Both the position numbers and the translations under genes were made by a program. A stretch of 61,322 nucleotides of DNA, counting the filler, from Basidiobolus ranarum (taxonomy: Eukaryota): the NCBI GenBank assembly GCA_040143965.1. It is 15 parts of 15 records of this genome, joined end to end, with 100 filler letters (N's around TTAATTAATTAA, not from the genome) between each part and the next. Parts side by side here need not be neighbours in the genome. Positions count along the whole stretch, not along the records: positions 1 to 4,005 come from JASJQH010002165.1; 14 more parts are not named here. One strand, given 5' to 3'. The notes beneath the pieces were generated by a model. It was not told the DNA's origin and made no database searches. It worked only from the letters and a program-made list of their open reading frames with translations. Positions 1,092 through 52,293 of this stretch are shown piece by piece (positions within the stretch are counted from its first letter, which is position 1; every line of letters starts with the position of its first letter).

Positions 1092-3290
1092 TGTTAACAT
1101 TAGGTAAATAGCAACTGATTATTTTGTAGTTAGTTTGATCATATGCCAATTATTTAGCACTCAGTACTGCCATTCAAAAATGTTTGTTTATTGCTCCAAT
1201 GGATTGATATATTAATTAGATCACTTTTTCCAATTTGCACTATTTTCCCAAAACCTCTCCAAATCACCTTGAATTTTCACCCATACTTAACAAGCATATT
1301 TGTTACAATCTAAGCATATTCATTAGTCCTATTTAATAGTGAACTATAAATAGCACACATTCAATTCAAGAAAACTCAAGTGTCCAATTCACAAATCCAA
1401 ATTTTTTCTAAAACACATCCAAGTCCCCTGAACACTATTATCAAGTAATGAGCCCCAAGCTAGCTGTTAAAGGAATGTATACTGGTATTATTACCAACAT
1501 GTTTGCAACCACAGAGAAGATTGCTGTTGAAGACTTTCATCTTTGGAAGAAGAATATGCAATTGCAGCTGCAAGACAAGGACCTATGGGGGTTTGTTACA
1601 GGAGAAGAAATAGAGCCAAACTGACTACCCAAAGCTATGCTGCTTTTCACAAGAAGCAGAGGAAAGCACTCTCTACACTTTGTCTACTTCTCAGAGACCT
1701 TCTATTGTGGCAGATACAATCAACCAATAACATCTAAAATGCTTGGGAAACATTTGAGGGTCTATATGAGACTAAAGGACTGGCTAATAGCTAAATCTTA
1801 GGTTAAAATTGTTCCCAATTCCAATGATTTCTGATGATTTTATGCTTAAATGTATAAATTGGATAAAAACTATGACAGATCAACTCTCATGAATTGCAGC
1901 ATCTCTAAATGAAGATGACTTTTTCATGACACTACTTGGGAGTCTGCCAGACAAGTTTGAGAACCTCATAATTGCCCTGGACTCAAGATCAGAGCCTTTA
2001 ACAATGGAATATGTTGGTGCTAGGCTCTTAAATGAGGAATTAAGGAGATCTAATTGTCAGAAAAAAATGCAGAATTGGCATTTTTTGGAGCTGTAAAACA
2101 TCCAAAAGGATTCAGTAATGGTTCCCCTAACCAGAAATCAATCATCTGCAAGTATTGCCAGAAACCAGGGCATATTTTCAAAGATTTCCGAAAAAGGATT
2201 TTGCTAAAAAGCTAAAATTGAAGCACCTCTAAGTGAAGATGACTTAGTCATGAAACTACTTGGGAGCCTGCCAGAGAAGTTTGGGAACCTCATAATTGCC
2301 CTAGAGTCAAGATCAGATCCATTAACAATAGAATATATTGGTGCTAGGCTTTTGAATGAGGAATTAATGAGATCTCATTCTCAGCAAAATATTGCAGAAC
2401 CAGTATTTATTGAAACTGCAAAATGTGCAACAGGCTTCAAAACTGGTGCCTCTAGCAGGAAATCAATCATCTGCAAGTATTGCAAGAAACTAAGCCATAT
2501 TGTCAGAACTTGCAGGAAAAGGATTTTGGCCAAAAAGCTCAAATTGGAACAAGCAAATCAAGTAAGCAATGATAGGGATCATCTATTTGTGTCTGCCCTA
2601 TTAGTAACCACTAAGAAAGACTCACAAACATGGTACATTGATTCAGGAGCTTCCCAGCATATGTCAAACTAGAAAGAGTGGTTTCCAGCTTAAAACCAAT
2701 CCTAACAAGGAAAGTCTACTTAGTTGATGAATGTACACTAGATGAAGTTGGTAAGGGTACAGTTGCACTTAATTTAGACTAAAATTCAGCTACACCATCT
2801 GCAAAATTGGATGATGTAATTAATGTACCAAATATAGCCAAGGATCTACTCTCAGTAAGCTAAGAAACAACACAAGGACTAAAATTTGCATGCAGCAAGG
2901 CTGGATATACCACCACAGATAAGAATAATATTAAATCAGCTAGTTAGATCAAAACTCAAAATGTATACCAGCTAGATATCTACAAATTGCATTCTGAGCA
3001 TGCTAACTTGGCCAAAACCAGTGAAATAGGCCGTCAAATATGGCATACAACATTAGGCCACATTGGGGAACAAAAACTGATCCAAATGATCCAAAATTAG
3101 CTTGTTTCAAGCTTGAGAGTTGAAAATATCACTAAATTGGATCTGTGTGAAGATTGCATATATGGTAAACATCACAGACAGCCATTTTCAAGCTATGGGG
3201 AGATCAAATCCACTCAGAATGTATTGATGACATAACAAAATATACTTGGGTATTCTTTCTCAACTCAAAATCTGAAGCCTTAGCTACATC
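1092..3290 (+). mobile_element. Ty1/Copia family 1, 5' part: LTR-A (1092-1443), PBS (1444-1456), degenerate gag-protease-start of integrase
   Basis: TG..CA LTR of 352 bp followed by AGTAATGAGCCCC. Zinc knuckle CKYCKKLSHIVRTC, protease motif WYIDSGASQHM and a GAG-pre-integrase remnant. Many stop codons. Confidence 0.9.
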
Positions 3291-3467
3291 TATAAACTTT
3301 TAGCAGGTTATAAGCCTATTTTATTGACCTGTGCCAGAATAAGTCCAAAGTTGGGACTCATCAATAAGGTAATCAGTGATGTTAATAAACTGATTGGATC
3401 TGCTGGTTTGGGATAAGGGAACTACACTTCTGTCATTATGCTATGTACATTGGGGGAGCAGAAGTTC

Positions 3468-3839
3468 TGTTGAAGTATTTACAGAAATGATATTTGATTT
3501 ATTAAGTTGACTTGAATTTATATGTAGGATTATATGAAGAGAATGTTCATTTTTAGATATTGAAATTATTTAGGGAGAAATATTGGTCTGGCCAGGACTT
3601 AAACCTGGGACCTCCTTCACTTTAGCAAGATGCTCTAACCACTGAGCTACCAGTCCTTGTATGCTATTCCTATATTGTTAGGGAACCTTAACCTAGTCCA
3701 TCAATGTATGGTACTTTGGCATTTCAGCTTTACAAGCAACTGATTGGCCTTAGACTTGGTGTTCAGATGCAGTCACCACACTCCATATTTTTCTCTTTGG
3801 GAATTACTGCTTGTAACAAAACTCACCAGACTTTCAACA
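3468..3839 (-). mobile_element. LTR-B (372 bp) of a tRNA-carrying TRIM-like non-autonomous LTR element
   Basis: Minus strand starts TGTTGAAAG and ends ACTTCAACA (TGTTGAA/TTCAACA inverted termini). It is directly preceded by the PPT TTGAGGGGGAA. A second copy starts at 44781. Confidence 0.8.
3584..3656 (-). tRNA. tRNA-like sequence embedded in LTR-B (pseudo-tRNA / Pol III promoter; nominal anticodon AAA)
   Basis: GGACTGG TA GCTC AGTGGTTA GAGC A TCTTG CTAAAGT GAAGG AGGTC CCAGG TTTAAGT CCTGG CCAGACC A. 73 nt, acceptor stem 6/7 paired, perfect D and T stems, intact A box, B box GGTTTAAGTCC (GGTTCGAGTCC after CpG decay). The anticodon stem is imperfect. Confidence 0.8.
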
Positions 3840-3890
3840 TTCCCCCTCAAGCAGGATTTCCAGATTTAGCACTAACTGGGACTCATAAAC
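3840..3890 (-). promoter_or_regulatory. Miniature internal domain: PBS (3878-3890), 27-bp spacer, PPT (3840-3850)
   Basis: Minus strand reads GTTTATGAGTCCC-AGTTAGTGCTAAATCTGGAAATCCTGC-TTGAGGGGGAA between two LTR ends. The PBS is a 2-mismatch variant of GGTTATGAGCCCC. Confidence 0.75.
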
Positions 3891-4005
3891 TGATAAAACT
3901 GTTTAGGAGTTTTGGAAGTGTTTTGGACAAGATTTGGATTTGTGAATTAAACACTTGAGTTTTATTGAATTGAATATGTCCTATTTATAGTGTACTATTA
4001 AATAG
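3891..4005 (-). repeat. Copia LTR-A 3' portion, truncated by contig end
   Basis: Reverse complement ...CTATAAATAGGACATATTCAATTC...CAAAACACTTCC...TTTTATCA matches the LTR-A end. Confidence 0.85.
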
Positions 4006-4105
4006 NNNNNNNNNNNNNNNNNNNNNNNNNNNNNNNNNNNNNNNNNNNNTTAATTAATTAANNNNNNNNNNNNNNNNNNNNNNNNNNNNNNNNNNNNNNN
4101 NNNNN
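4006..4105. other. Artificial contig spacer (first of 14; the others start at 8108, 12209, 16310, 20410, 24508, 28605, 32700, 36794, 40887, 44977, 49066, 53153, 57239)
   Basis: Identical N44-TTAATTAATTAA-N44 block with stops in all six frames. Contig lengths decrease monotonically. Confidence 0.98.
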
Positions 4106-7100
4106 TGCCATGTATTCTGCTTCTGTAGTTGATAATGCAACAATGTGTTGTTTCTTGCTAAATCAGCTTATTGGCCCATCGACTAGCTTAAACACATGTC
4201 CAGTTCTGGACTTACAGTGTTCTGTATTGTGAGCCCAGTCTGCATCAGCATATCCTTCAAAAATAAGCAAAATGTTGTTTTGCTTTCTAAATTGAATTCC
4301 AAGATGTATTACACCTTTCAGATAGCATATTATCTGTTTCACAGCTATCCAATGTGGCATTGCAGGATTCTCCATATATTTGCTTACTATGCTTATGGCT
4401 GTGGCAATATCAGGCCTAGTACCAGTTATTGCATATATGAGACTTCCTACTAAACAACAGTAAGGAATATGTTTCATGATTTCAATATCTTCAGAGGTCT
4501 TTGATTCCATATTCTTAGTGAGCTTCCAAATACATAGTGGATTTGAAACTGTTATACATTCTGACAAATTGAATCTGTTTAAGACATCTCCATTATATTT
4601 TTCTTGTGTAATACAGAGTGTTCCAATAGGGGGATTTTGCTGTATCTGCATTCCAAGACAATATGCTAGTGATCCAAGATCTTGCATTTCAAATTTGATA
4701 GATAGCCAGGTCTTAGTTTGTTGCATCAGATTTGAGCAATTACCAACTTTTATGATATCATCAACATAGAGGGCAATTATGTCTTTGGTGGCTTTGATAG
4801 TCTTGAAGTAAATGCATTGATCAGCTTTGCTACAATGGAAAAGATGTTTCATGAAGATCTGATTGATTTTGATATTACATGTGCAAGGAGCCTGTTTCAA
4901 ATCATATAGACTCCTCTGTAACGTCATACTTAATGTTCTTTTCCTTTTGCAACATATCCCTCAGGTTGATTCATATATACATCTTCATCAATTTCTCCAT
5001 TACAAAATGCTGCCTTGACATTCATTTGTTCAATTGGCAATTCTTGGTGGGTAGCAATGGCTAGGATTGCTCTGATTGAGGTAAACTTAGCAACAGGAGA
5101 AAATTTTGCATCATAGTCAATGCTATGTTTCTGAGCACAGCCTTTTACTACCAATCTTGCTTTGTACTGGTTGATAGATCCATCTGAGTTAAGTGTTAGT
5201 TTCAGCACCTATCTATTACAAATAGTTTTTCTTCCTGTAGGTAAGTCCACAAGGATCCATGTGTAATTTGTGATTAGGGAGTGAATTTCATCATCAGTAG
5301 ATTTTCTCCACTCTGTTGCTTAATCAGATCTCGGAGAATGTGCAAATTTTCTGGTTCAGAAAATGCTATATGTGAAGATATCTTCCACCCTTTTTCTGAA
5401 TTGAAGCTATGGATTTTGTGCTCTGATTTGAGACATCCAAAGTCCTTGGTAGAATGATCAGATGTTTCACTTACAGGATATTTCTGATTTCTGCTTGGTA
5501 AGATTTCTGAGACCTGATTACCTGAATTTTGGGATTGATTTAATACTTGTTGTGATTGATTGCATATTTCCAATAATTGAATGCATCCAATTTCAGCCAA
5601 ATTGAGAGTAGAAAACTTCTTAGATATGTGATTGGTCAGAAAATCATTGCCTTGTGTCTGAGGCCAATTTCCTGATTCATGATTGGCTGGAAAAAATCCA
5701 TTTTCTAATTATCTTATTATTCATTGCCAGAGATAATATGCTAATTTCCAGAACCTGATTCCAAACTATCAGTATCCTTGGAGTACTTATCAAGTTTTAT
5801 TGTATAAATTGATGATTTCTGCTGATCTTTTATGGCTGCTTGATTCCAGAATATCATATAATAGTTTGTTCTCCTTGGTTTTGGTACTTATAGTGAAGTT
5901 TGACGCAGGATTATTGCTGGTTAGTTTTCTGCTAGGAATATTCACCACAGGGATTGGTAATGATTTGAGCTTTGTCATATATTCATTGGTTGCTGATACT
6001 TTAGACCTTGTCCCAGATGTGATATTTTCAAAATTTGAAAAATGTTGATAGATAGTTTCAGATTCCAAATTTGGCCTAATTCCAGTATCTATTTCCAATG
6101 TATCATTTTCCAAGTTGGTTTCGGTACTCATTAGCTCAAGTTTGGTTTCAGAACTCACAACTCAGAATTTGAGTTATTGAGAAATTGATTTTCAGCCAAA
6201 ATCAAATTCCCTTGATTAGAAGATTTGATATTTTCTTCAATGAGTATAGTATCTCTGGAGTTGATGATTTGATTTGTGCCAGCAATCAGGAGACAATAGC
6301 CTTTGTTTTAATATCCCAATAGGATATAGTTAATTGCCTTTTTGTCCAATTTCCTATGCTGTTGCTTAGGAATTTGAGCATAAACTATGATCCAAAAATT
6401 CTGAGGTGATTCAGATTAGGTAGTTTCCAGTCCTGATTTCAATAGGAGTTTTAGAGTCATGGTTGTTACATGTTGGACTTGTACTTTGGTGCTACATAGT
6501 TGTAAAAATAGCTCCACCCCTTAAGGTCTTAGGCAGACCTAAATCAATCAGCTTTGTATGTGCTTTCTCTACTAAAGTCCAATTGATCTTTTCTGCAACT
6601 CCATTTTGTCCTGCACTATATGGAATAGTAAATTTGCAGCTGAATTCTTGTTCTTTGACAAAAGCTTGTCATGGCTTTAATGCCAAATTCAGCTCCATTA
6701 TCACTTCATAGGTACTTGATTTTTTTTCCTGCGGTTGTTGTGACTGTTGCTTCATATATCTTGAAATATGAAGCACTTCTCCATTGCTTGACACAAGATA
6801 TGAAACTATGAAGTGAGATTTATCATCAATAAAGATGAGTAAATATCATTGCTTACTTGGTGTCAGAGTTTGCATTGGGCCACATAAGTCTATATGGATA
6901 AGATCCAACAAATCCTTGGCTTTGGAAGCTCCTTCTATTGGAAATGGCTTTCTGGTGTTTTTCCCTGGAATACAGCTTTCCCATTTAGTAATATCTGAGG
7001 GCTTAAGATCCATTCCAGTACATAGGCTATTTCTATATAATAGTTTCACACTGTTGTAGTTAAGATGACCTAAGTACCAATGCCAAGTCATCAAGTTTCC

Positions 7101-8107: not shown

Positions 8108-10422
8108 NNNNNNNNNNNNNNNNNNNNNNNNNNNNNNNNNNNNNNNNNNNNTTAATTAATTAANNNNNNNNNNNNNNNNNNNNNNNNNNNNNNNNNNNNN
8201 NNNNNNNCAATGTTCAAATTGAAATTTTAAAGGTGTACAAATTGCACCAAGCATATCCTTGTTCCCGCTATGGTGGCCAGCAAGAGAAGCATGGTGCTGA
8301 ATAAGAAAGAGCAATCCCTTAAAGAAACGGTCAACGGAGCTATACTCATCCTCTTTATGGCCTTCAGTATGAGAAAATCATAGGTCAATTTCGAGATAAT
8401 GGAAATTGAAGCTTGAGTTTTGGAACAAGAGTGTTTGATAACCAAGATGTGCTGTGACGGGTATTAAATGTTATGATATATTACAGGTACATATTCATAC
8501 TCTAAATGGATGGAGTACTTCATTAACACTCGGTTGAACTTTGATAGATTTCCTTCAAAATTGCCCTGAAACCATGTATCCCTCTTACGCTTAATTTTAA
8601 GAAATAGTATCTTCATCTTCCACAGTATATTCATAGTCCTCTACATCACCATGCTCTATGTATTAAGTATCATTATCCTCTCCGTCACCGCCACGAAAAC
8701 TGTTGCTTTTCAATGAGACTTTGGATACGATACTGAAAACATTTCCCTAATAAACGCGAGCGATATGGGATAGCTTGTTGATAAACTTCCGGCGGACTTA
8801 GTATTTGACAACCGTCTCACTAGACCCAATCGTCACAGAAAATTCCATGATTCGTTATATACTAAGCATAGAGCTAACTAAGTTTGAGGAAACAGTTACG
8901 AATATTCGATTTTCATCATATCATTCATATTGAAGCTATATTCGAAGAGGATTGAGAACAGAGTGTGTTTTTCCTTGACTAAGTTAAGATCATTCTATTA
9001 AATATGTTCCTTTGAACTATCCAATAATTCCAAGTTATTTACAAATCCAGTTTGCTTATTGTTGCCTATCAAATATATTCGTAGTTTAACGCCACAATTG
9101 ACCAGTATAACACTTACGATCCTTGTATATCCAGATGCTAGGCGATCATAGCTGCATATGTAATAATTAAATCCTACTATTACACCTCCATTCAGACTAT
9201 GAGTAAAGCTCAATTTATGTTGCAACTCGGATGGTAAGGCATATAGAAATAGTTTCATGCTTTAATTCATCTATTATGCTTTAGAGACTCTATTGCTACT
9301 GCATCTTCCGTCATTTCGTATTATAGTGTTCCCATAAAAATTGAGAGCTCAACTTTAATCAGTTTCTGGGCATATTTACTTTTCACCTGAAGGGCATGCG
9401 CTATCATTTCGATATCTTTCATGACTGCAAATTGCAACGTATATCTAGCAGTGTTAGAAATAATGCATACCAAAGATGAAAGTGACAAATGCTCACTTAT
9501 CTGTGGAGCCATTGCTTACGAGAGGACACATAATGAGATCTTATACTGCAACTGTAGTTAGATCAATTAGGTTTCATTAAATTTAACATCCAGAATCTGA
9601 ACCTGTGGCTGACATTACTCACATCTTCATCAGGTTTCCATGCACAATATCACGGATCCATTTTCTCTTCAACATTAGCACTGTATTGTTGTGCCACCCA
9701 TTCGCATACATCACGGGCAAAGCATTAATTGGAGGAGGGAACCATTTAATATCTTACTAAAACCCGTTACAGAAGCATATCCTCCTCTGGGCATAAATCA
9801 TGAATTGAATCTATTCTTTGGACTCTCCCTTTCGTGGATGTTCTAGTATCTGTAGTGAATACAACTGGTAACAAACGAGCATTACATTTGTGTCAGTGGT
9901 ACAATATGCAACATTAATTCAGGACAGCGTAACGTCTTAGGGAACATAGATCGTTCATGAATTTTCATATGTGACGATCAAATCCATCCGAGGAGAACAC
10001 ATAGCGTTTCATACGTTATTTTCACATCTCCAATCATTTACTAATTTGGGAGAAATTAAAATTTGTGTGACCATGAGATACTATTATTGAATACCAACTA
10101 TTGTAAACGGAGGGGAAATATTGAAGAGATGAGAAAATTACTCTCTCGTTCATCTCGTGGACTTGCCTAAATAATTCATTAAGCCATTTCGATACGTAAC
10201 TGGTCTCATAATCTAGTGTTGGGTGTGTACAAGGAAAGAGAGGTTTCCCAAAGGTAGCTAGTTACGGTTCCTTCCAACTTTAAGAATTGCTTGGAATCGA
10301 GGCGATTACTATCTTTCATACTGAATTCTTCAGCTGCCAACATCCAGATATTCACTATAAATATCCAAGGATGCCTATTACTTGACCTTCAGTACAGATC
10401 GCTTCACTTTGAATATTTTGCA

Positions 10423-11301
10423 ATGAAATTCTCCAGCTTCCTCCCATCTGCCGCCTTCACTCTCAGCCTAGTGACATTGACTGTTGCTCACATGGAAATG
10501 ATCCAGCCACCTCCTCGTCACTCCAAGTACAATCCTACTTTTCAAGGGACTCCAGATTACAATATGGTCAATCCTTTGGGCACTTTTCCTTGCAAGGGCT
10601 ATGAACAAGGCAATGTTGTTCAAACTGTGCAAGCTGGTAGCGCCATCAGTGTCAAAATTAATGGAATTGCTACTCACAATGGAGGCCATTGCCAATTCGC
10701 TATATCATACGATGGTGGTAAAACCTTTGCCGTCTTAAGTACCATCTACAGTAACTGTATCATCTCTTCTCTGGATTATTCTGTAACCATCCCAAGTACT
10801 GCTGGTGCCAGTAAGAATGTGATTTTTGCCTGGACATGGATCAACAAAATCGGCAATCGTGAGTATTATATGAATTGTGCAGATATCGAGATTACTGGTT
10901 CCTCTGATGGTTACATTACTGGTCCAAGTCTTTTGGTTGTTAATCTTCCGGGTTATACCACTATCCCAGAGTTCCCACAGGATGGGCCCAATGATGGAAG
11001 AGACTTGTTGGCGGCGCGACCAACCATCACTATTCGCCCCCAAAGAGACACTTCTCCAACTACTACTACCACCACTTCCATTCCAACTACAACAAGCGCC
11101 TCTAGCACCACTAAATCTACCACCCCTACGTCAACCCCAGGTGCTGGAATTTGTAATGGAGTCGGTGCTTGGAACGCCGGAACAGCATATTCGGAATCTA
11201 AAAAAGCCACATACAATGGCCACTTATGGCAGGCCCAATGGTGGACTCAAAATGAGACTCCAGGCTCTAACAGTGCTTGGGTAGATCAGGGAGCATGTTA
11301 A
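10423..11301 (+). CDS. Secreted lytic polysaccharide monooxygenase, AA11 family, with Thr/Ser/Pro linker and C-terminal CBM5/12 chitin-binding module (292 aa)
   Basis: 22-aa signal peptide followed by the N-terminal His (HMEMIQPPPR). Motifs THNGGHCQFAISYD and FAWTWINKIGNREYYMNCADI. C-terminus AWNAGTAY...YNGHLWQAQWWTQNETPG. TATAAA lies about 65 bp upstream. The true start is the ATG at 10423, not the TTG at 10291. Confidence 0.9.
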   Translation: MKFSSFLPSAAFTLSLVTLTVAHMEMIQPPPRHSKYNPTFQGTPDYNMVNPLGTFPCKGYEQGNVVQTVQAGSAISVKINGIATHNGGHCQFAISYDGGKTFAVLSTIYSNCIISSLDYSVTIPSTAGASKNVIFAWTWINKIGNREYYMNCADIEITGSSDGYITGPSLLVVNLPGYTTIPEFPQDGPNDGRDLLAARPTITIRPQRDTSPTTTTTTSIPTTTSASSTTKSTTPTSTPGAGICNGVGAWNAGTAYSESKKATYNGHLWQAQWWTQNETPGSNSAWVDQGAC

Positions 11302-13084: not shown

Positions 13085-15276
13085 CCCTAACAGAAATTTG
13101 AGGATTATTAACATAGGAAAACCTTTTTAACTTTGATCCATTTTGGATGGACTGTTTAATCACCATGATAAAATTGTTAAATTAGATTTGATTCTAATAA
13201 TTTTTTTCAGTTTTAGGAGTGAATTTTCAAGATCTTACAAAATAGTTTCCCACAATTAGCTACATTCTTAGAGAACTATGGATTAACACATTTGCAAAAA
13301 ACATAACTCAAGTTTTACCCATTTACCACTTGAACACTAATTTGCCTCCTTCAACATTCCTTGGTACTTTGATACATTGTCTTGAATCTTTATATAGAGT
13401 TCTTTGTACCCAAGGTTTAGCTCATATCAAACACAAGTTTGTATCAATATCTCCATCAAAGCCAATCATATATTAATGTTGCTGAATCAGCCCACCACTC
13501 CATAAACATTGCTGAATCAACATTCTTCCAGCTATCTGGCAGATACCCTGCAATATTGTGCTGCTCTGTATTAAATTCTTCCCAGATATCTGCATGGGTA
13601 ACACCAGACTAAATGTCAAGTTGAATGTTCTTCTTTAGAAGCCACTTTCTGCACACTTGCACTGTGTTTTTCTCTTCATACTTTTGTATATACTCCTAGA
13701 GCACTTTTACCATTTCTATACATCCTTGTAGTTTGATACTGTCTAGGGTGCTCTGCAGTGTTTGTGTGGCTTTTTGCTTGCCTCTAAGTTTGGGGCTAAT
13801 TTCAACACTTTGAAAAGGACCAGTTGTGGTTGGATGGCCATAAGTTTTCTTTGCAGGTGTTTTAGCTTGCTGAGAGATGCCAGGAATTAAATAAAACACC
13901 AACTTGTTGTTTGTCTTCCAAAGCCACTTTCTACATACTTGCACTGCATTTTTCCTTTCATACTTTTGAAAATACTCCTCAAGTACTTTTGCTATTTTTA
14001 GAAATCCTTGTAGTGTGACACTAGTGAGGATGCTTTGTGGTGTTTGTGTGGCTTGTTGCTCACCTATCTGTTTGAGGCTATTTTCAACACTATGAAAATT
14101 ACCAGTAGAGGTTGGAGAACCATGAGTCTTATGTTATGGTGTTTTAATTTGATGCAAGGTACCAGGTGTTGGTTAAACCTCCAAATATGGCACTCTTGCA
14201 ACTGGTGTACCTGGTTCCATGGTGAAATTAAGCTTTTTTGCCAATATATCTGACTGTGATAATACAGATCTTCATAATGGTGTGAAGCACTTGGTAAGTA
14301 GGACATCAGAACCTGAACTCACTGGTTCCTTTGCTTTTCCCTTGGGTTTAATAACTTCCAGCTTTTTGGTACTTCTTTAGCTGCCTTTCTTTAATTTCCA
14401 AGTTGATAATTGTGTACATTTTTGTGATGTTTCATGAATAGGCCTATACTAGCTCAATTGCCATTTGCTAGCAAAAACTCAAAATAAGCCACATGTAATA
14501 TGTCAAGACCTTTCAGAGTAATGCCTGGTTTTTGGTTTTTCCACAATTGGCTCAAATCTAGGGGATTTTGGGCAAGATTCCACACAGTTTCCAAAATGTT
14601 AAACCACTCATCATCAGAGCAAGTGATGGCAGCTCTAACACTCAGAGTCTTTTGGTTTGCTGGTGTTCCTATGAGATTTCTACTTTCATGTTCACATGTA
14701 TCATTGGGTTGTTGTGTAGGCTTAACGGTCACACACATATTCTGCTCTGCTGGATTGTCATGGTGACCTTCAGATGTATGGTGTGGGATTGATTGAAATG
14801 CCATATGAGAATGGATGGAGGGAATAGCATGTGACTGTAGCTCAAGTATAGTATTCTTAAGGTCTTTTATCATTGTTCAATGACCCTCTAACTGTGGACT
14901 AGTTGCTTCCAAATGCTGCATTAATTGTAATGATGAGGTATTTTTGCTTGTCAAGGCCTGTATAGCAACTGTGTAGTTTTTACTAATGATTGCATACAAA
15001 TCACAATTGTGTTCTGCCTGCGATTCCCTTTTTGTAACAATTCTATCAAAATTTTCCATGGAGGATTGTTCAATTGTTTGCACTGTACTCATTTTGGAAG
15101 CAATAGTCCTGACAGTGTTTCTGTTGAACTTTGCTCAACTATTGACTTACTATGTGATGTGGGGGATTACAAGCTCTTCACTTGCACTATTGCTTGAAAA
15201 GCACACATCCAATAAATTAGTTAATGCTTGATCATTACTTGAGTTAGGTTTTGGCATGTCAATGCCTTCTAAAGTA
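13085..15276 (-). mobile_element. CMC/CACTA element: TIR CCCTAACAGAAAT plus nearly complete decayed ORF2
   Basis: Perfect terminus at 13085. ORF fragments 13696-15092 match ORF2 peptides (WFNILETV..LDLSQLWKNQKPG, VQVCRKWL). Contains an internal duplication. Confidence 0.8.
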
Positions 15277-35991: not shown

Positions 35992-36793
35992 CCCTAACAG
36001 AAATTTTCAGCATTGTTATCCTAGGAAAACTGTCACAATTTTAATCCATTTGGGGTTGACCATTTACTTTCCGTCATAAAATTGTCAAGTTAGATTTTAT
36101 TTTAATCAATATTTTCAGTTTCAGGAGTGAAATTTCAAGATCTCACAAAATAGTTGCAAATGATTGGCTAAAATCTCAGAGAACTATGGATCAACACATG
36201 TGCAAAAAACATAACTCAAATTTTACACAATTACCACTTGAACGCTAATTTGTCACCTTCAAAATCCCTAGTCTCTTTGTTATATTCTCCTGAATATTTT
36301 CATGGAGTTCTTCATACCCGAGGTTTAGCTCATACCCAACCCAAGTTTGTATCAATATCTCCATCAAAGCCCACCATTGTATTAACGTTGCTGAAGCAAC
36401 ATTCTTCCAGCTTTCTGGTAGATACCCTGCAATATTGTGCCACTCTGTATTACATTCTTCCCAGATATCTGCATGGTCAACACCAGACTGAATGTCAAGC
36501 TGAATGTTCTTCTTCTGAAGCCACTTTCTGCATACTTGCACTGTGTTTTTCCCTTCATACTTTTGAAAATACTCCTCAAGCACTTTGACTATTTTTGTAT
36601 GTCCTTGTAGTGTGACACTACTGAGGGTGCTTTGCGGTGTTTGTGTGGCTTTTTGCTTGCCTTTACCTTTGGGACTAATTTCAACACTTTGAAAAGTACC
36701 AGTTGAGGTTGGAGAGCCGTGAGTTTTATTTGCTGGTGTTTTGGCTTGTTGAGAGGTGCCAGGTGTTGGATAAACTTCCGAATTTAGCACTCT
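35992..36793 (-). mobile_element. CMC/CACTA ORF2-side terminus and ORF2 3' end, inserted in an LTR-C (35835-35991)
   Basis: CCCTAACAGAAAT at 35992. The 181-aa open stretch 36245-36790 is the best-preserved ORF2 C-terminus. Confidence 0.82.
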
Positions 36794-36893: not shown

Positions 36894-37350
36894 CATGATT
36901 ACTAAAATCTTAACCAAACCTTTGGCTAAAGCACAATTTCAAGTATCAAGATATAAGATAGGTTCAACAGAAATAGAAAATAATTAGTTGAGTGGGAATG
37001 TCAAAATTAGGTAAATAGTAACTCATTATTTGAAAGTTTGTTTATTTGTAGTCAGTGTTTTTAGCACTCAATTCTGCCATTCAAAAATGTGTGCTTGTTG
37101 CACACATTGATAGAATTATCATTTGGATCACTCTTTTCACTATTCACTATTTTCTCAAAACTTTTCCAAATCACCTCAAATGTTTGCCCCAGATTATCAG
37201 GCATATTTGTTATGACTTAAGGACATCCAATAGTTCTACTTCATAGTACACTAAAAATTGGACATAATCAATTTAATAATACTGAAGTGTCTAATTCACA
37301 AATCCAAATCTTATCCAAAACACTTCCAAATACCCTAATCACTTTTATCA
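36894..37350 (+). mobile_element. Copia family 1 RNase H end, PPT and 3' LTR-A (36999-37350)
   Basis: LTKPLAK motif, PPT TTGAGTGGGAA, and a 352-bp TG..TATCA LTR. Confidence 0.85.
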
Positions 37351-37767: not shown

Positions 37768-40654
37768 TCCTAATAGAACTTGAGGATTGTATTGTAGGAA
37801 AACCATCACAATTTCAATCCATGTTGGATTGACCATTTACTTACCATCAAAAAATAGTCAAGTTAGATTTGATTTTAATCAGTTTCTTTAGTCTCAGAAG
37901 TGAAATTTAAAGATTTTGCAAAAAAGTTGCACACAATAAGCTACAATCCCAGAGAACTATGGATCAGCACATGTGCAAAAACATAACTCAAATTTTAAAC
38001 GTTTACCACTGAACACTAATTTGTCACCTTCCTAATCCCTTGTTTCTTTGATAAAATCTGCTGAATAATTTTATAGAGTTCTTCATACCCAAGCTTTTGC
38101 TCATATCTAACACAATTTGATATCAACATCTCCATCAAAGCCCACCATTGTTTCAATGTTGCTGAATCAACAGTCTTCCAGCTATCTGGCGCATACCTTG
38201 CAATATATACCACTCTGTATTAAGTTTGTCCCAGATATCTGCACAGTCAATGCCAGACTGAATGTCTAGTTGAATTTTCTTCTTCTAAAGCCGCTCTCAA
38301 CATACTTACACTGCATTTTTCCCTGCTTACCATTGAAAATACCCTGCCTGCACTTTTACTATCTCTATATTTCCCTATAGTGTTACACTACTGAGAGTGC
38401 TCTGCAGTGTTTGTGTGGCTTTTTGCTTGCCTTTGAGTTTAGGGCTTATTTCAACACCTTGAAAAGTGCCAGTTGATGTTGAAGAGCCACAAGTTTTATT
38501 TGCTGGTGACTTGGCTTGTTAGTCAATGCCAGGTGTCGAATAGACTTCTAAATTTAGCACTTATCCCACTTGTGTACCCTGTATCATGGTAGAATCAACC
38601 AATTTTTGCCAGCATATCTGACTCTGGAAATATAGATGTTTGTAATGGTATCAAGAACTTAGTAAGTAGGACATTAAAGCCTAAACTCACTAGCTCCTTT
38701 GCTTTTCCCTTGGGTTTATTAACTTCCTGCTGCGTAAGTACCTCTCTAACTGCTTTTCTTTCTTTTCCTAGTTTATAATTGTGAACATTTTGAGATGCTT
38801 CATGAATAGGCCTATACTGACCAGATTGCCATTTGTTTGCAAAACCCCGTATAAGCCACATGAAATAACCACTCAGTGTAATGCTTAGTTTTTGGTTTTT
38901 TCTACAATTGATGCAAATTAAGGTGCTTTTGGGCAAGATTTGCACAGTTTTCAAAATGCTGAACCATTCATCATCTGAGCAAGTGGGAGCAGCTCTGACA
39001 TCAAGAATCTTTTGGTTTACTGGTTTTCTGACAAGATCTCTACTCTCATGTGCTCAAGCAATTTTGGGACACTGAGTAGTCTTAATGGTGTGACACATAT
39101 TCTGCTCTTCTAGATTGTCATGGTGATATTCAAATGTATAATGTGGAATTGATTGAAATCCCCTATTCAAATAGACCAAGGAAGCAGCTTGTTGCTATAG
39201 CTCAAGTACAGCATTCTGAAGGTCTTGTATCTTTGTTTAGTGATTCTGTTACTGCTGACCAGTTGCTTCAGAACTGAGCATTAGTTACAAAATTACAGTG
39301 CTACTGCTTTTCATGGCCTGTATAGCAACTTTAAAGTTTTTACTTATGAGTGCATTCAAATAATTATTGTGTTCTGCCTACAATTCCCTGTTTGTAATAA
39401 TTCTATCCAAGTTTTCTATGAAGGATTGATCATTAGCTGGCAAAGTAGCCATTTTGGGAGTATATAGAAGTAAATGAAGACAATGGTTTTGTTACAGACT
39501 TTTTGTTATTAGCAGGCATTAGTACACTTAAAACACTTACAGTAAAGAAAACAGCTTTGATTATTGAGGAGTAGAGAGTTCAATCCAAACTTAGCAATCA
39601 GGTGTTTATTGTTTTTCATACACTTTTACCACAGTTGATCGGCAACTGTTGCTTGCCACAAACCTGGTTCAAGTGGAAAATTCTTTTTAATCTTGTGACT
39701 TATAAATCCTTCAGTAATTAAACCACCATCATGTCCAAATGGTTGTTTGGCTTTCCAAAAGTACTCACCATAAAGCTGATAGTATTACCAACGTACTTGA
39801 TGGATATGACTACCAAAATCTGAAAAGTCAAGGTTACTTTGAGAACACATATGATTTTGCATTAGCATTGGCCCTGGACCGTTTGTCATTAAACAAATAT
39901 ACCATTGGAAAGGCTTGTTGGCCAATAATTTTAATTAACTTAAATTTTCCTCCTTCTGAATTGTATAATAGTCTTGATACTTCAATACTATCAATCACAT
40001 CTGGACCTAAATCACCAGTGCTTACTGATAGTTTCTTGCAGCCTTTGATTGTGGAATTTGAATGGTTATGTAATAGGGTTCAGATTGGTGAATATTTCTT
40101 AAAAGTTGATATCACCCTATTTATTGGTGACACTCCTGCCTTCATTAAACTTGGATGTTTTTGCAGGCACAATGCAATATCTTGCTGTAGATTTTGTCCA
40201 ATCAATCAAGTTTACTCTATCTGTCATATGCATTACCACTACCCAAATGCAACACTAAACTCCATGATTTTACCATCAAGAGCCCAGTAAGATTTCATCA
40301 TGCTCACTGATATCAATTCACCAGGTAGTCAGTAAAACATCAAACTTGGTACTAGCTGTAAGCCTAAGATTATATTGCTAAAGAGGTTCAGCTCAAGGAT
40401 GAGCTTCACATTAGACACTATGCACTTACTAGTCACCAACATTACAATACTACCTACTCAGCTATATAGTGGAAAATTGAACATGAATGGGCCATTTGAG
40501 ATAGGGCCAAAGTTTCAATTGATGAGGAAAAAGCTTGGAAATGTGAAGATACTGTCATATTTTGCCAGGACTCCCATCAATATCCACTTTGATAATTTTG
40601 CAATCCACAATGGCAGATCTGATCTAGATCAAATTGATTTAATTTTTGTTAGGG
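37768..40654. mobile_element. Internally deleted CMC/CACTA copy retaining both termini (ORF2 on minus, transposase on plus)
   Basis: Left end TCCTAATAGAACT (decayed TIR) and right end ATTTTTGTTAGGG. Transposase motifs ALDRLS..CWPIILINLNFPPSE, GPKSP, IGDTPA..CRFC and LDTMH. Confidence 0.8.
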
Positions 40655-41054: not shown

Positions 41055-41618
41055 TCACCATACATCACAATCTCTGCAGTCATACGAATCATTAAAGGTT
41101 ACATATGGCTTTGGTACTGGCTTAGTTACATATGGCTTTGGTACTGGCTTAGTTACATATGGCTTTGGTACTGGCTTAGTTACATATGGCTTGGGCTTAG
41201 GCTTAGTAACATATGGCTTCGGTGCTGGCTTAGTCACGTATGGCTTGGGTTTGGGCACATATGGCTTAGGTCGCGGAATATATGGATTAGGTTTGGAAAT
41301 ATTTGGCTTAGTGTATGACCCATACGACCTCGATGGAGACTTGTATGCTCTTGATCCACTGCTCTTGGGTGACTTCTCCTTTTCATCATCATCATCATCG
41401 TCATTATCATTAGATTTTGGAACCAGCTTGGCATTTGACTTGGAGCCATACGATGGTAGTCCTCTTTTCTTTAACATAACGGAGTTCTCAGAATTAACTG
41501 ATGCCCCTTCCCCACTTGCTTCTAAATCCATTGGAGTTGCATGCGCAAAGAAGTCTTGTGATACAAGCGCTAATGCGCCGGTCATCATAAGATATAAAGC
41601 TTTGCTTTTTAGCATCAT
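41055..41618 (-). CDS. Secreted Pro/Lys/Tyr-rich tandem-repeat protein (about 187 aa)
   Basis: Hydrophobic N-terminus ending AHA-TP, a KKR (Kex2-type) site, an Asp run, then PKPYVTKP(V/A/K) repeats. TATAAA lies about 100 bp upstream on the minus strand. Confidence 0.8.
   Translation of the reverse strand: MMLKSKALYLMMTGALALVSQDFFAHATPMDLEASGEGASVNSENSVMLKKRGLPSYGSKSNAKLVPKSNDNDDDDDDEKEKSPKSSGSRAYKSPSRSYGSYTKPNISKPNPYIPRPKPYVPKPKPYVTKPAPKPYVTKPKPKPYVTKPVPKPYVTKPVPKPYVTKPVPKPYVTFNDSYDCRDCDVW
41098..41290. repeat. 27-bp coding minisatellite (GTTACATATGGCTTTGGTACTGGCTTA)
   Basis: Three identical units at 41098, 41125 and 41152, then diverged units at 41179, 41206 and 41233, and shorter degenerate ones. 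Confidence 0.95.
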
Positions 41619-42739
41619 TATTTCAAAACCAAAGGGATTATGAAGTGAGGGAAGAGGAAAGGAGAGAACGGATCTAACCAAGATGGGTGATTTTTTTCAT
41701 TCTTGGACGTTGTGGTTTTATACTCAAATGAATATCAGAAAATCATAAAACCTAGTTTGAGATGTGTTACAAACAGAACAGATTATAATGATGTTAATTC
41801 ATATATTACTGCAATATGTTACATCCTTTTTGCATCAATATGCGAACGATAGCTACGACAAGGATGTAAATTTGTTATTGATGGTTAAAAGCCCCATGAA
41901 CTAACAACCTTGAAACTGTAGGTGGAATGACACTGAAGCAGTGTTGTGCATTTTCGATGTTATTTCACTGTTATTGTTTGAGATATGTAGATTTCCAATC
42001 GAATTTAAAGCTTGGTATTGGTTGTATACTTGTAGTTAACACCGTAGTTTCTGTCTAAAATTGCACTGCATGAATATCCTTAGATAGACTCAGGAGAGTT
42101 TACCCATTTCCTTGTCGCTCAATGAGACAGGAAGGGGCTAATTGCCCAAAACTCTTTTGTAAGCAACGTACACAGTTAAACGTGACTGTTTAGAATGTAT
42201 AATTTACCTATAATGGGATTTTTGCCACTTGTTGACCGCATCATTATCTTAGCTGATTAGGTGCCTTCTTAAGATAGAAGCACTGAACTATTTACCAGAA
42301 AAGTCATTCATACTGAGCACCGTAGCAACTATAGTCCTTTACTAGTAGGTCATAATCATTTGAGTGCAAAATACTCTCTTTCATATCTGGTCACTACTCT
42401 CTCGCCGTTTGTTTTCAAGGTACATCAAATAGGTATATCTTGACAGTTGGCATCATATGAAAATCGAATATTTCCATGTTAGAGTAATTCATACCAATGA
42501 GTATCATAATATATGACACATCACATGACTCGTATCATAGTATAAGGGTCGCCAAGTCAGTTTTGTTGATCCGATTACTTTTTATCAACAGTGTACACAT
42601 GTTCTCAATTATATTGGATTGAGTTCATCAATTTTATATGTATAGTCGCACGCACCGATCAGCAGTGTGTAATTCTGCGATCGTCCTTCAAGTGCAACTC
42701 TGCTAATTCTGGGTTAATAAAAGTATTTTCAAAACATGT

Positions 42740-43756: not shown

Positions 43757-44780
43757 TGTTGAAATAAGCATTGCCTAAGCACCAATATAGTCATATATAG
43801 CTTAGTGCTTAGTTATCTTATAATTTACTAAGATATTATCCATTATTCTCAATTGAATTTATTTGAATATTCTTACCAACTGAGAAGTTCTCAGATATAT
43901 AGATTTTTCAAACTTGTGCTAGAAGCCCCAACCTTGGCACACATGTTTCTAGGACCTTCCTTAACACATTCTACACACTGGTTTACTTACATCTTGACAA
44001 ACCTATAAATGTCAACTTTCTACTCAATAATCAATAAATGAAAACTACCAATTTATCTAAATCTCCAAACAACCTCCAACTGACTCCCAATTACTTGAAC
44101 AGGTTATGAGCCCCAAGCTTGCACTCTCTCTAATGTCTACTTCTCAAATCTATGGAACTTTGCTCTCTTTTGAAAAATTGGATGGAACCAATTATCAAGT
44201 TTGGAGAATTAAAATGCAAATGCTGCTGCAAGAAAAAGAACTTTGGGACACTGTTGTAGGAGAAGTAGACAATGCAAAACTATTTGAAACTAAAGCTTTA
44301 CTCCAGGTTAAAAATGAACAAAGTGCTTTTAACACAATTTATCTTAATGTTAAAGACAAATTGCTACATCAATATTCAAGAGCTAAAACTGCCAAGAAGG
44401 TATGGAAAGCCTTGGAAGACACCTACAAAAAAAGCTCTGTTGCCAATAAGATGTGTCTAAGAAGACAATTCTTTAACTAAAAGATGAAGTGAGGAGAAGA
44501 CATTAAATTACTAATTAATAGAGTCACTATTTTAGTAGATGAAATGGAATGCATTGGAGTACCTAACACTGATCAAAATATCATAGTTACAGTCCAGAAT
44601 AGCATGCCACATGAATTTCAGAGCCTAGTAATGGCTCTAGAATCAAGAACTGGAAATTTGATCTTAAATTATGTATTTGGCAGACTTCTGGATGAAAATT
44701 TATGCAAATCAGGATCCAACCAAAAGAATGAAGAAAATGCTTTAATAGGCTATGGGAAACCTTCCTACAAAGGTCAAAAG
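43757..44780 (+). mobile_element. Ty1/Copia family 2, 5' part: LTR-C (43757-44101), PBS (44102-44113), gag from 44133
   Basis: TGTTGAA..AACA then a perfect GGTTATGAGCCC. Gag EKLDGTNYQVWRIKMQMLL..LW and TAKKVWKALE. Interrupted at 44781 by LTR-B. Confidence 0.92.
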
Positions 44781-44976
44781 TGTTGAAAGTCTGGTGACTA
44801 GTGGTACAAGCAGTAATTCCCAAAGAGGAAAATGTGGAGTATGGTGACTGCATCTGAACACAAAATCTAAGGCCAATCAGTTGCTTGTATAGCTGAAATG
44901 CCAAAGTATCATACATTGACAGACTAGGTTAAGGTTCCCTAGCAATATAGGCATAGCATACAAGGACTGGTAGCTC
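44781..44976 (+). mobile_element. Second copy of tRNA-carrying LTR-B (5' 196 bp; tRNA starts at 44964), inserted in Copia gag
   Basis: TGTTGAAAGTCTGGTGA... is colinear with 3839-3644 (minus). GGACTGGTAGCTC begins 183 bp from the LTR start in both copies. Confidence 0.85.
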
Positions 44977-50329: not shown

Positions 50330-52293
50330 CCTACAATCTTTAAGCATTGAGAAAGATGCAGCAGGGAATGTATTGAATACTGGCATAGATTAGTCTATTT
50401 TCCTTAAGCCTGTAACAAAGTTTTTTATATCCAATTACAAAACCTTTGTGCAGTTGCTGTATCTGTCTGAGATTTGCCCATGTGAGTTGATGCTGTAAGA
50501 ATATATTAACAGTATTGACAAATAGTTCCCAATGTTGCCAATACTTATCAGTCAGAAATCTTTTCAGGATTCCACTTGAATACATACAATTCCAATACTT
50601 CCAGTCTTTGCATTTGTGAAAGTGCCTAGATGAGTGGATATTGATGGAGTCCTAGTAAAATATGATAGTATCATGACATTTTCAAGCATTTTCCCAATTG
50701 ATTAAAACTTTATTTCTATCTTGAATGGCTCATTCAAATTGCACTTTCCATGATATAGCTGAGTAAGTAGTATTGGAATGTGGTTGAATAGTTAGTGCAT
50801 GGTGCCTATTGAGAAGCTCTTGCTCCAGCTGATCCCCTTTAGCAATATAATCTTGGGCTTACAGATAATTCTAAGTTTGATGTTAGACTGACTATTTGGT
50901 GAATTAATAGCAGTGATCATTTTGAAATCTGACTAGGCTCTTAATGGTAAAAGCATGGAGTTTAGTTTTGTATTTGGATAGTAGTAATGCACATACCATA
51001 TAGAGTAAACTCAATTGATTTGATGAAATCAACAGCAAGATATTGCATAATGTCTGCAAAAACCTCAAAGTTTACCAATGGCAGGAGTGTCACCAATACA
51101 TACAATGATATTAGCTTTAGTAAGATATTCACCCATCTGAACCCCATTAGATAACCATTCAAATTCCACCATCAAAGGCTCCAAGGAGCTATCTATAAGA
51201 ACTGGTGATATAGGTCCAGATATGATAGATTGTATTAAAAATTTATGACTCTGTTACAATTCAGAAGGTGGAAGATTTAAGTTAATTAAAACTATTGGCC
51301 AGCAAGTCTTTCCAACAGTATATTTGTTTAGTGAGAAACCATCTAGAGCCAATTCAAATGCATGATCATATGTGTTCTCAAAGAAACCTTGACTTTTCAG
51401 ATTCTGGTAGTGACATCCATCAAGTATATTGGTAATACCATCAGCCTTATGGTGACTACTTTGGTATTGGATCAATGATCTATATTTGGGTGATTTCATC
51501 AAAACTTTACAATGGGGAATCAATGGTATGTAAGCCAAATAAGAATGATATTTACCTGAATCAGTGATTGCCAATTGTGTGCAAACAGTAGATGACTTCA
51601 GGTTTTTCAGATCACCAGTGAAAGTCAAACATCCATTAGGACATGAAGGTAGTTTAATTACTGAAGGATTATATGTCAGACAATTGACAAGTATTTTCCA
51701 CTTGTACCAGGTCTGTGGCAAGCATCAGTTGCCAATCAAATGTGGTAAAAGTGTAAGAAAACCAATAAACACCTAGTGGCTAAGATTGGATTGAACTCTC
51801 CACTCCTCAGTAATCAAAGCTGTTTCCTTTACTGTAAGTTTTATGAGTGGACTAAAGCTTGCCAAGAACAAAGAGTCTACAACAAAATCATTGTCTTCTT
51901 CTTCAACTTCTGATATACTACCATCAGTACTGGAATAACCAAGGTCAACATCTAGCAGCACATCCTCAAGGTTGTCTGGACTTACTGGTTTGACCAAAGT
52001 TGCATTTGTATCTATGTCATTCTGGTCACATAACTGTGGTAACTTCATGGTATGTTTACTTTTGGTAGTGTTACCAAAACTTTGAGGCATAGTAGAGTCA
52101 GTGGACTCAGTGGGCAAAACTAAAGTAGATTTTGTGCACTTATCACTGTTGATATTAACCAAGCTTTGTGCAGCTGGTGGCTTTGTACAGTGACATGCTT
52201 GTGATTATTCTTTCTATGAAGCCTCTGGCTTCCATAGCACAACAATTTGTGACAATAATAGCAGGGCTTCTTTAAACATTTGTGATGTGGCAT
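50330..52293 (-). pseudogene. CMC/CACTA (EnSpm, Transposase_21-like) transposase, decayed
   Basis: N-terminal CxxC..H motif, CPNGC, ALDGFS..CWPIVLINLNLPPSE, GDTPA, YWQHWELFV and HSLLHL..GP motifs in order. Confidence 0.85.

Follow-up and report, generated by a model that had tools for sequence, protein, structure and literature searches.

A tRNA-derived module within a Copia-type long terminal repeat of Basidiobolus ranarum

In a 61,322-nucleotide stretch of the Basidiobolus ranarum draft genome (GCA_040143965.1; hereafter the window), we identified a 372-bp long terminal repeat, designated LTR-B, which carries a tRNA-derived module, occurs as two insertions and has the same cis signals as the Copia elements residing in this genome. 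We propose, with a probability of about 45%, that LTR-B represents a Copia-mobilised, non-autonomous, Helenus-like LTR family in Basidiobolus. According to this proposal, LTR-B would be the 372-bp LTR of a retroelement family from the Copia clade, with which this genome is filled, and some 30 nt ahead of a TATA-like box its U3-like part would hold a tRNA copy that has decayed and is probably non-functional. LTR-B would be copied and integrated in trans by the proteins of the resident autonomous Copia elements, because it shares with them its ends, its polypurine tract (PPT) and its half-tRNA-iMet primer site. At positions 3468-3890, LTR-B would act as the 3' LTR of a mini-element in which nothing but the primer site and the PPT is left of the interior, and this copy would have been rearranged since, its 5' LTR coming from another family. 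We infer the non-autonomy of the family, its mobilisation in trans and any Pol III role of the module. Overall, LTR-B is most likely an old, decayed Helenus-like family in a new host lineage, and it establishes no new mechanism.

The window consists of 15 contigs of 3,984-4,005 bp, arranged with the longest first and connected by linkers of the form N44-TTAATTAATTAA-N44 (joints at 4006-4105, 8108-8207 etc.); the adjacency of contigs across these joints is meaningless. The two copies of LTR-B lie on contig 1 (1-4005) and contig 11 (40987-44976). The Copia pol region at 4106-4960 was rejected as a continuation of the LTR-B locus, since it sits on another contig.

LTR-B, its tRNA-derived module and its two insertions

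The first copy of LTR-B occupies positions 3468..3839 on the minus strand (372 bp, TGTTGAAAGT...TACTTCAACA), in the position of a 3' LTR with a PPT before it. The initial annotation had described here a 372-bp TGTTGAA...TTCAACA unit, and both its length and its termini were borne out at 3839->3468, the ends TGTTGAA/TTCAACA forming a 7-nt terminal inverted repeat. The 5' TG was positioned on two grounds, namely that copy 2 breaks a gag gene at this very dinucleotide and that the PPT adjoins it in copy 1, and the 3' CA was placed at 3468 because a plus-strand Copia gag/protease fragment stops exactly at 3467/3468. This insertion-site flank (3286..3467, plus strand) comprises a gag C-terminus and the beginning of a protease broken at its active-site motif, and its reading ...KVISDVNKLIGSA... 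/ CYVHWGSRS parallels QVITDMDHLFVSA and WYIDSGASQ of other Copia copies. This plus-strand reading led us to discard a candidate for a second primer site, at 3363->3352 below LTR-B, and also LTR-B ends near 3439 or 3396; alignments assuming such longer LTRs scored no higher than the best of 200 shuffles. Hence placed, LTR-B displays the cis signals of the Ty1/Copia clade, i.e., TG...CA ends with an inverted repeat, an abutting PPT and the primer site of the clade.

The tRNA-derived module (3584..3656, minus strand) is 73 nt long, corresponds to nt 184-256 of the 372-nt LTR, has AAA in its anticodon loop and is devoid of CpG. ARAGORN called it a tRNA-Phe(AAA), the sole tRNA in the 61 kb, and the Rfam tRNA model (RF00005) matched it with a score of 53.0 bits (E 1.7e-10, against a gathering score of 29 bits), which was the only Rfam match in the 61 kb. 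The tRNA-shaped sequence of 73 nt previously noticed 183 bp from the start of the unit is thus well founded. The accompanying description of a complete cloverleaf with A and B boxes is right in part. The minimum-energy fold is cloverleaf-like, and the box A-like TAGCTCAGTGG (3639..3649, minus strand; tRNA nt 8-18) fits, as TAGCT...TGG, the TRGCY...YGG motif of Helenus elements (PMC10886601). By contrast, the acceptor stem and the anticodon stem have one non-pair each, and the box B-like GGTTTAAGTCC (3595..3605, minus strand; tRNA nt 52-62) matches the Helenus motif at four of five positions (GGTTT versus GGTTC; PMC10886601). The folding energy, which is ordinary (z -0.24), was dropped as an argument for the tRNA, and it is the covariance-model score that carries the claim. 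The module is unlikely to be a working tRNA, because of its AAA anticodon, its two stem mismatches and its total loss of CpG; the match at 3584-3656 would be better flagged as a transposon-borne pseudo-tRNA than as a gene.

With regard to SINEs, tRNA-derived SINEs (SINE2) and LTR-B both possess a tRNA-derived part with A and B boxes. SINE2 elements carry it as a head at the 5' end of the unit, unlike LTR-B, where it begins 183 nt into a TG...CA unit that follows a PPT, with an equal offset in both copies. The hypothesis of a SINE insertion bounded by flanking repeats was rejected; the best repeat flanking the module is 7 nt long, which was equalled in 721 of 2000 shuffles, and no significant repeat or tail was found around the module. 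BLAST and Rfam detected no free-standing copy of the module in the window.

The second copy (44781..44976, plus strand) comprises the first 196 nt of LTR-B, including tRNA nt 1-13 at 44964-44976, and is cut at the contig end. It aligns with copy 1 gap-free over these 196 nt, with 15 mismatches (92.3% identity). It begins at the same TG as copy 1, directly behind a Copia gag ORF (44061..44780, plus strand; Pfam Retrotran_gag_2 and DUF4219) which halts a few codons before the zinc knuckle, and whose 5' LTR is the family LTR-C (43757-44101). As to the independent second copy announced by the initial annotation, the common TG and the insertion in a Copia gag were found as described, and the claim that the tRNA lies at the same offset is to be read as resting on the 13 visible nucleotides. 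The mobility of LTR-B is upheld by these two insertions, in which the module keeps a fixed offset of 183 nt. As the copies share the start of the tRNA at one offset, the tRNA was therefore present in their common ancestor.

In support of the non-autonomous reading, it is worth noting that interrupted Copia coding sequence bounds both termini of LTR-B, with gag at the TG and gag/protease at the CA. Against this reading, the 60 kb of the window contain only two copies, one of them with no more than 13 nt of the tRNA. Each copy shows one outer end inside its contig, the second outer end lying outside the view. Neither of the two is attached to a gag-pol, the interior of copy 2 lying past the contig end and that of copy 1 being 51 nt long. 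Exact-pattern scans for stretches of LTR-B and its tRNA returned no match in metagenome contigs and none in viral contigs. Being CpG-depleted and 8% diverged from copy 2, copy 1 is to all appearances old and dead.

Two further observations concern contig 11. It ends (44976) 13 nt into the tRNA module of copy 2, perhaps because the assembly ran there into a repeat that branches or has more copies; such a break would be consistent with a tRNA module that is commoner than the 5' part of LTR-B. At the other end of this contig, a frame of 213 aa that is not of transposon type (41055-41696, minus strand) displays KPYVTKP(V/K/A)P repeats together with a run of acidic residues; a protein database search among proteins of 117-373 aa found no relative of it.

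The resident Copia families and the 51-nt interior

Two tRNA-less LTR families of the window serve as references for LTR-B. The first one, R2, has 352-bp LTRs (in all four full copies measured) flanking autonomous Copia elements; behind its 5' copies come (A)GTTATGAGCCCCAAGC and the gag start, and ahead of its 3' copies come pol and, just before the LTR, TTGAGTGGGAA or TTGAGTGCAAA. The second one, LTR-C (345 bp, contig 11), has the same type of ends and primer site as R2. LTR-B and these Copia elements have in common the termini TGTTGAA...(T)CA(A/T)CA, the PPT TTGAG(G/T)GGGAA and the primer site (A/G)GTTATGAGCCCCA, so that the Copia-type nature of these three signals is supported. Their LTRs are also of similar size (372 bp versus 345-352 bp). 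In contrast, the tRNA module occurs in LTR-B only, R2 and LTR-C having none according to ARAGORN and Rfam, and the body of LTR-B cannot be aligned with theirs: BLAST found nothing, and local alignments of LTR-B with R2 and LTR-C scored 36-42, as compared with a mean of 28-29 (sd about 5) and maxima of 44-49 for shuffles.

The interior upstream of copy 1 (3840..3890, minus strand) is 51 nt long, which leaves no coding room, and is made of an R2-type leader (nt 1-26), a segment of nt 27-40 and the PPT (nt 41-51). The PPT TTGAGGGGGAA (3840..3850, minus strand) adjoins the TG of LTR-B (3850->3840), as initially reported, and matches at 10 of 11 positions the TTGAGTGGGAA found before the R2 Copia 3' LTR at 36999. 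The half-tRNA-iMet-type primer-binding site TTATGAGTCCCA (3877..3888, minus strand), which corresponds to interior nt 3-14 and falls within the R2-type leader, has one mismatch to the primer site behind the 5' LTRs at 1446, 44104 and 61088. Its presence further up, with no coding sequence in between, was likewise confirmed, 26 nt beyond the PPT. The alignment of interior nt 2-26 with the R2 leader was reached by 1 of 1000 shuffles. Like the interior of a Helenus element, this one is non-coding, with the primer site at its 5' end and the PPT at its 3' end.

Beyond this interior stands the 3' part of a heterologous 5' LTR of family R2 (3891..4005, minus strand), of which 115 nt are visible before the contig end. 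The 129-nt segment 3877-4005 shows 80-87% identity with R2 copies at five further places, and its comparison with LTR-B by BLAST gave no match. The structure seen is thus [R2 5' LTR]-[primer site ... PPT]-[LTR-B], with unlike LTRs. The call of a TRIM made in the initial annotation did not hold at this point: the only interior joins LTR-B to R2, a tRNA-less family, the visible 115 nt of which are all that flanks the interior upstream, and the window contains no LTR-B pair, i.e., no LTR-B/primer site/PPT/LTR-B unit. One round of reverse transcription leaves both LTRs of an element alike. As the LTRs are unlike here, copy 1 has therefore been rearranged after its integration, or it was mis-assembled.

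The unlike LTRs at the only interior, together with the lack of an LTR-B pair or full element in the window, speak against the non-autonomous reading. The unlike LTRs also favour a rival explanation which we regard as doubtful rather than improbable, namely that LTR-B would be a normal LTR, driven by Pol II and belonging to an autonomous Copia, the master copy of which gained a tRNA or tRNA-SINE fragment in its U3, the 51-nt interior being an accidental R2/LTR-B deletion joint in a rearranged nest of transposons. The length of LTR-B (372 bp versus the 345-352 bp of its neighbours) would agree with such an origin, and contig 1 does contain other non-canonical joints (1893-2096 / 2208-2400; 3285/3286). 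This rival would have to account for the following points. First, a random deletion sparing 26-40 nt plus 11-25 nt, with exactly both sites, seems improbable. Second, no gag-pol attached to LTR-B occurs within the window. Third, the flanking repeat expected of a SINE insertion is not significant (721/2000 shuffles). An interior pared down to the two cis-required sites would be the product of replicative selection in TRIMs, and it is because a random deletion is unlikely to spare just these two sites that we rank the non-autonomous reading first.

We also considered that the R2-interior-LTR-B arrangement might be a mis-join in a fragmented, repeat-rich draft assembly, which would make the interior uninformative. 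The contigs of about 4 kb do end in repeats, contig 1 in an R2 LTR and contig 11 at 13 nt into the tRNA. Nevertheless, such a mis-join is very unlikely; the repeat copies, being 76-92% identical, are divergent enough for a unique assembly, and the joint has no shared stretch long enough for a false join.

Two features of the Copia element of contig 1 deserve mention. A gag segment is duplicated in tandem at 1893-2096 and 2208-2400 (plus strand; ...LLGSLP(D/E)KF(E/G)NLIIAL(D/E)SRS...), and in the same element the integrase jumps back to the gag/protease fragment at 3285/3286.

Pol II-type and Pol III-type signals

The part of LTR-B that follows the tRNA is 116 nt long and contains Pol II-type signals (3498..3555, minus strand), i.e., TAAAAAT, TATAAAT and AATAAA at 88, 55 and 36 nt from the LTR end, respectively. 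The TATA-like boxes of R2 (four copies) and LTR-C are located 98-99 nt from the LTR ends, so that LTR-B and the resident Copia LTRs are alike in possessing a TATA-like box in their last 100 nt. The TATA-like and AATAAA signals in comparable positions are in line with LTR-B being the ordinary LTR of an autonomous Copia.

As previously described for copy 1, 3890->3468 contains a single TTTT, which precedes the tRNA and lies at 3821; there is none from the tRNA to the LTR end nor in the interior. The initial annotation regarded these missing T-runs as what one would expect if Pol III has to read through the element. This argument fell, in that TTTT-free sequences accounted for 26.8% of 11,496 windows of 167 nt and for 19.7% of shuffles of the two segments, and in that the tRNA is followed closely by a T-run in the fungal Helenus LTRs available to us. 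Avoidance of T-runs was consequently rejected as a signal, since the absence observed is not beyond chance.

These data bear on the possibility that LTR-B belongs to a working Pol III-driven TRIM (TRIMp3), in which transcription would start at 3656 in a 5' LTR-B, proceed through the primer site and the PPT and end in the 3' LTR. The sense orientation of the tRNA, the fit of its box A and its near-consensus box B would suit such a mechanism, as would the lack of TTTT between the tRNA and the LTR end or in the interior, the precedent of Cassandra and the proposal made for Helenus (PMC10886601). We consider it unlikely in the light of four facts. First, 20-27% of stretches of this kind would be free of TTTT anyway. 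Second, the visible part of the 5' LTR present here is devoid of a tRNA, and none of the R2 copies has one. Third, LTR-B is missing the T-run seen behind the tRNA of the fungal Helenus consensus sequences in the part of DataS1 available to us. Fourth, both copies of LTR-B are CpG-decayed (observed/expected ratios of their contigs, 0.02 and 0.34). Judged from its sequence, some Pol III drive of LTR-B is possible.

Comparison with Helenus and Cassandra, and composition of the window

In the portions of Kojima 2024 (PMC10886601) available to us, Helenus elements are defined as TRIMs whose LTRs contain a tRNA-derived sequence (TRIMp3). The screening rule was a whole element below 1000 bp, and the elements found range from 311 to 1263 bp; an LTR-B element would reach 795 bp given two LTR-B copies, its actual 5' LTR being cut at the contig end. 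Fungal Helenus elements, which Table 1 of that paper assigns to rust fungi and a few Agaricomycetes only, are Copia-dependent, mostly use a 3'-truncated tRNA-iMet primer and generate target-site duplications of 5 bp (4-6 bp in Helenus at large). Their consensus sequences (DataS1 of the same paper) start with tgttga... and have interiors running from ggttatgagccc... to ...gggggaa. A T-run comes within a few bases after the tRNA, with about 25-45 nt left to the end of the LTR. One Helenus interior corresponds to the first 198 and the last 12 bp of a Copia interior. The paper further remarks that tRNA-like sequence is present in "not a few" of the LTRs in Repbase, a statement that would favour LTR-B being an autonomous Copia LTR with an acquired tRNA fragment, and it proposes the insertion of a SINE into an LTR as the origin of Helenus-type elements. 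Pol III transcription has been demonstrated for Cassandra, and Helenus is proposed to work likewise (PMC10886601).

The likeness of LTR-B to Helenus, already pointed out in the initial annotation, is confirmed for the cis signals and for the layout of a tRNA within an LTR (PMC10886601). Both have a sense-orientation tRNA-derived sequence inside a TG...CA LTR, and in both the tRNA copy is unlikely to be functional; copy 1 and Helenus alike have an interior reduced to a Copia leader and a PPT; and LTR-B shares with rust Helenus the tgttga... start and an interior extending from ggttatgag... (half-tRNA-iMet) to ...gggggaa (PMC10886601, available parts). Comparison by eye with the available DataS1 sequences extends this likeness to the module itself. 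Several rust Helenus elements have, as LTR-B does, acaa before GACTGG, the 5' half of the acceptor, as well as the identical 13-mer GAGGTCCCAGGTT, located in the variable/T arm, and Helenus-4_PGr has after its tRNA a T-rich CCCTAAA stretch similar to that of LTR-B. These by-eye similarities could reflect a common tRNA source.

Other characters set LTR-B apart from Helenus as reported in the same source (PMC10886601). Its LTR measures 372 bp, versus a reported maximum of 323 bp, and the 51-nt interior of copy 1 compares with 76-92 nt for the shortest fungal Helenus interiors in the available part of DataS1 and 85 bp for that of a Selaginella family. Its tRNA is followed by 116 nt with TATA/AATAAA-like signals and no T-run, instead of a tail of about 25-45 nt with a T-run. 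Helenus elements have a matched LTR pair, which does not appear in the visible copies of LTR-B, and a target-site duplication, for which each of these copies shows one outer end only. The size of LTR-B, its TATA/AATAAA-like signals, its lack of a post-tRNA T-run and the deviation of its box B thus weigh against the non-autonomous, Helenus-like reading. None of five LTR-B-specific 9-12-mers was found in the available text of DataS1, a search blind to motifs that run across a line break.

Cassandra elements, which are short and non-autonomous, resemble LTR-B by the presence of a small-RNA gene copy inside the LTR (PMC10886601). They differ in that this copy is a 5S rRNA with a conserved Pol III terminator in the account available to us, whereas Rfam recognises in LTR-B a tRNA only, with no T-run after it.

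The Basidiobolus lineage is absent from Table 1 of the Helenus paper (PMC10886601), and six names of early-diverging fungal taxa, including Basidiobolus, gave no match in its supplement text; our literature search, at the level of titles and abstracts, found no later report. A Copia-type LTR with a tRNA module in Basidiobolus widens the known fungal range beyond rusts and Agaricomycetes. It is decidedly unlikely that LTR-B represents a Pol III-capable, Helenus-type TRIM lineage in Basidiobolomycota with a module homologous to, and not convergent with, that of rust Helenus. If this homology were true, tRNA-bearing Copia parasites would be as old as the split between early-diverging fungi and Dikarya, or would have been transferred horizontally between fungal phyla. 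LTR-B is possibly an intermediate form, with a full-sized LTR and Pol II-type signals beside a tRNA copy, and as such it bears on the origin of these elements. More generally, LTRs with copies of small-RNA genes (Cassandra, Helenus and Ajax) can be seen as the SINEs of the LTR world, and because of them too many tRNA genes are predicted.

Concerning base composition, the G+C content is 35-41% in every contig. The CpG observed/expected ratio is 0.02-0.12 in the transposon-filled contigs versus 0.45-0.65 in the gene-bearing ones, with TpG/CpA in excess. This loss of CpG from repeats, along with the TpG/CpA excess, is consistent with a methylation-driven decay.

Several other frames were noticed in the window. 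The Copia reverse transcriptase ORF at 4163-4960 has a best database identity of 45%, to unnamed proteins. In contig 12, a tyrosine-phosphatase ORF shows 80% identity, across 93% of its length, with a protein of Basidiobolus meristosporus; its identity with a partial protein of B. ranarum is 71%. The 347-aa frame at 10258-11301 (plus strand) ends with a C-terminal CBM_5_12 chitin-binding module (E 2.4e-07) and gives a weak, sub-threshold AA9-like match; its product is possibly a secreted protein resembling lytic polysaccharide monooxygenases. Two related frames, at 39718-40290 (plus strand) and 51254-51724 (minus strand), the first of which matches Pfam Transposase_21 (tnp2 family; E 1.1e-07), indicate a putative family of DNA transposons besides the Copia elements. 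Lastly, related minus-strand frames at 13696-14133, 14454-14876, 36245-36793 and 38595-39053, on contigs 4, 9 and 10 (...QATQTPQS(I/T)L(T/S)SVTLQG...), form another repeat family.
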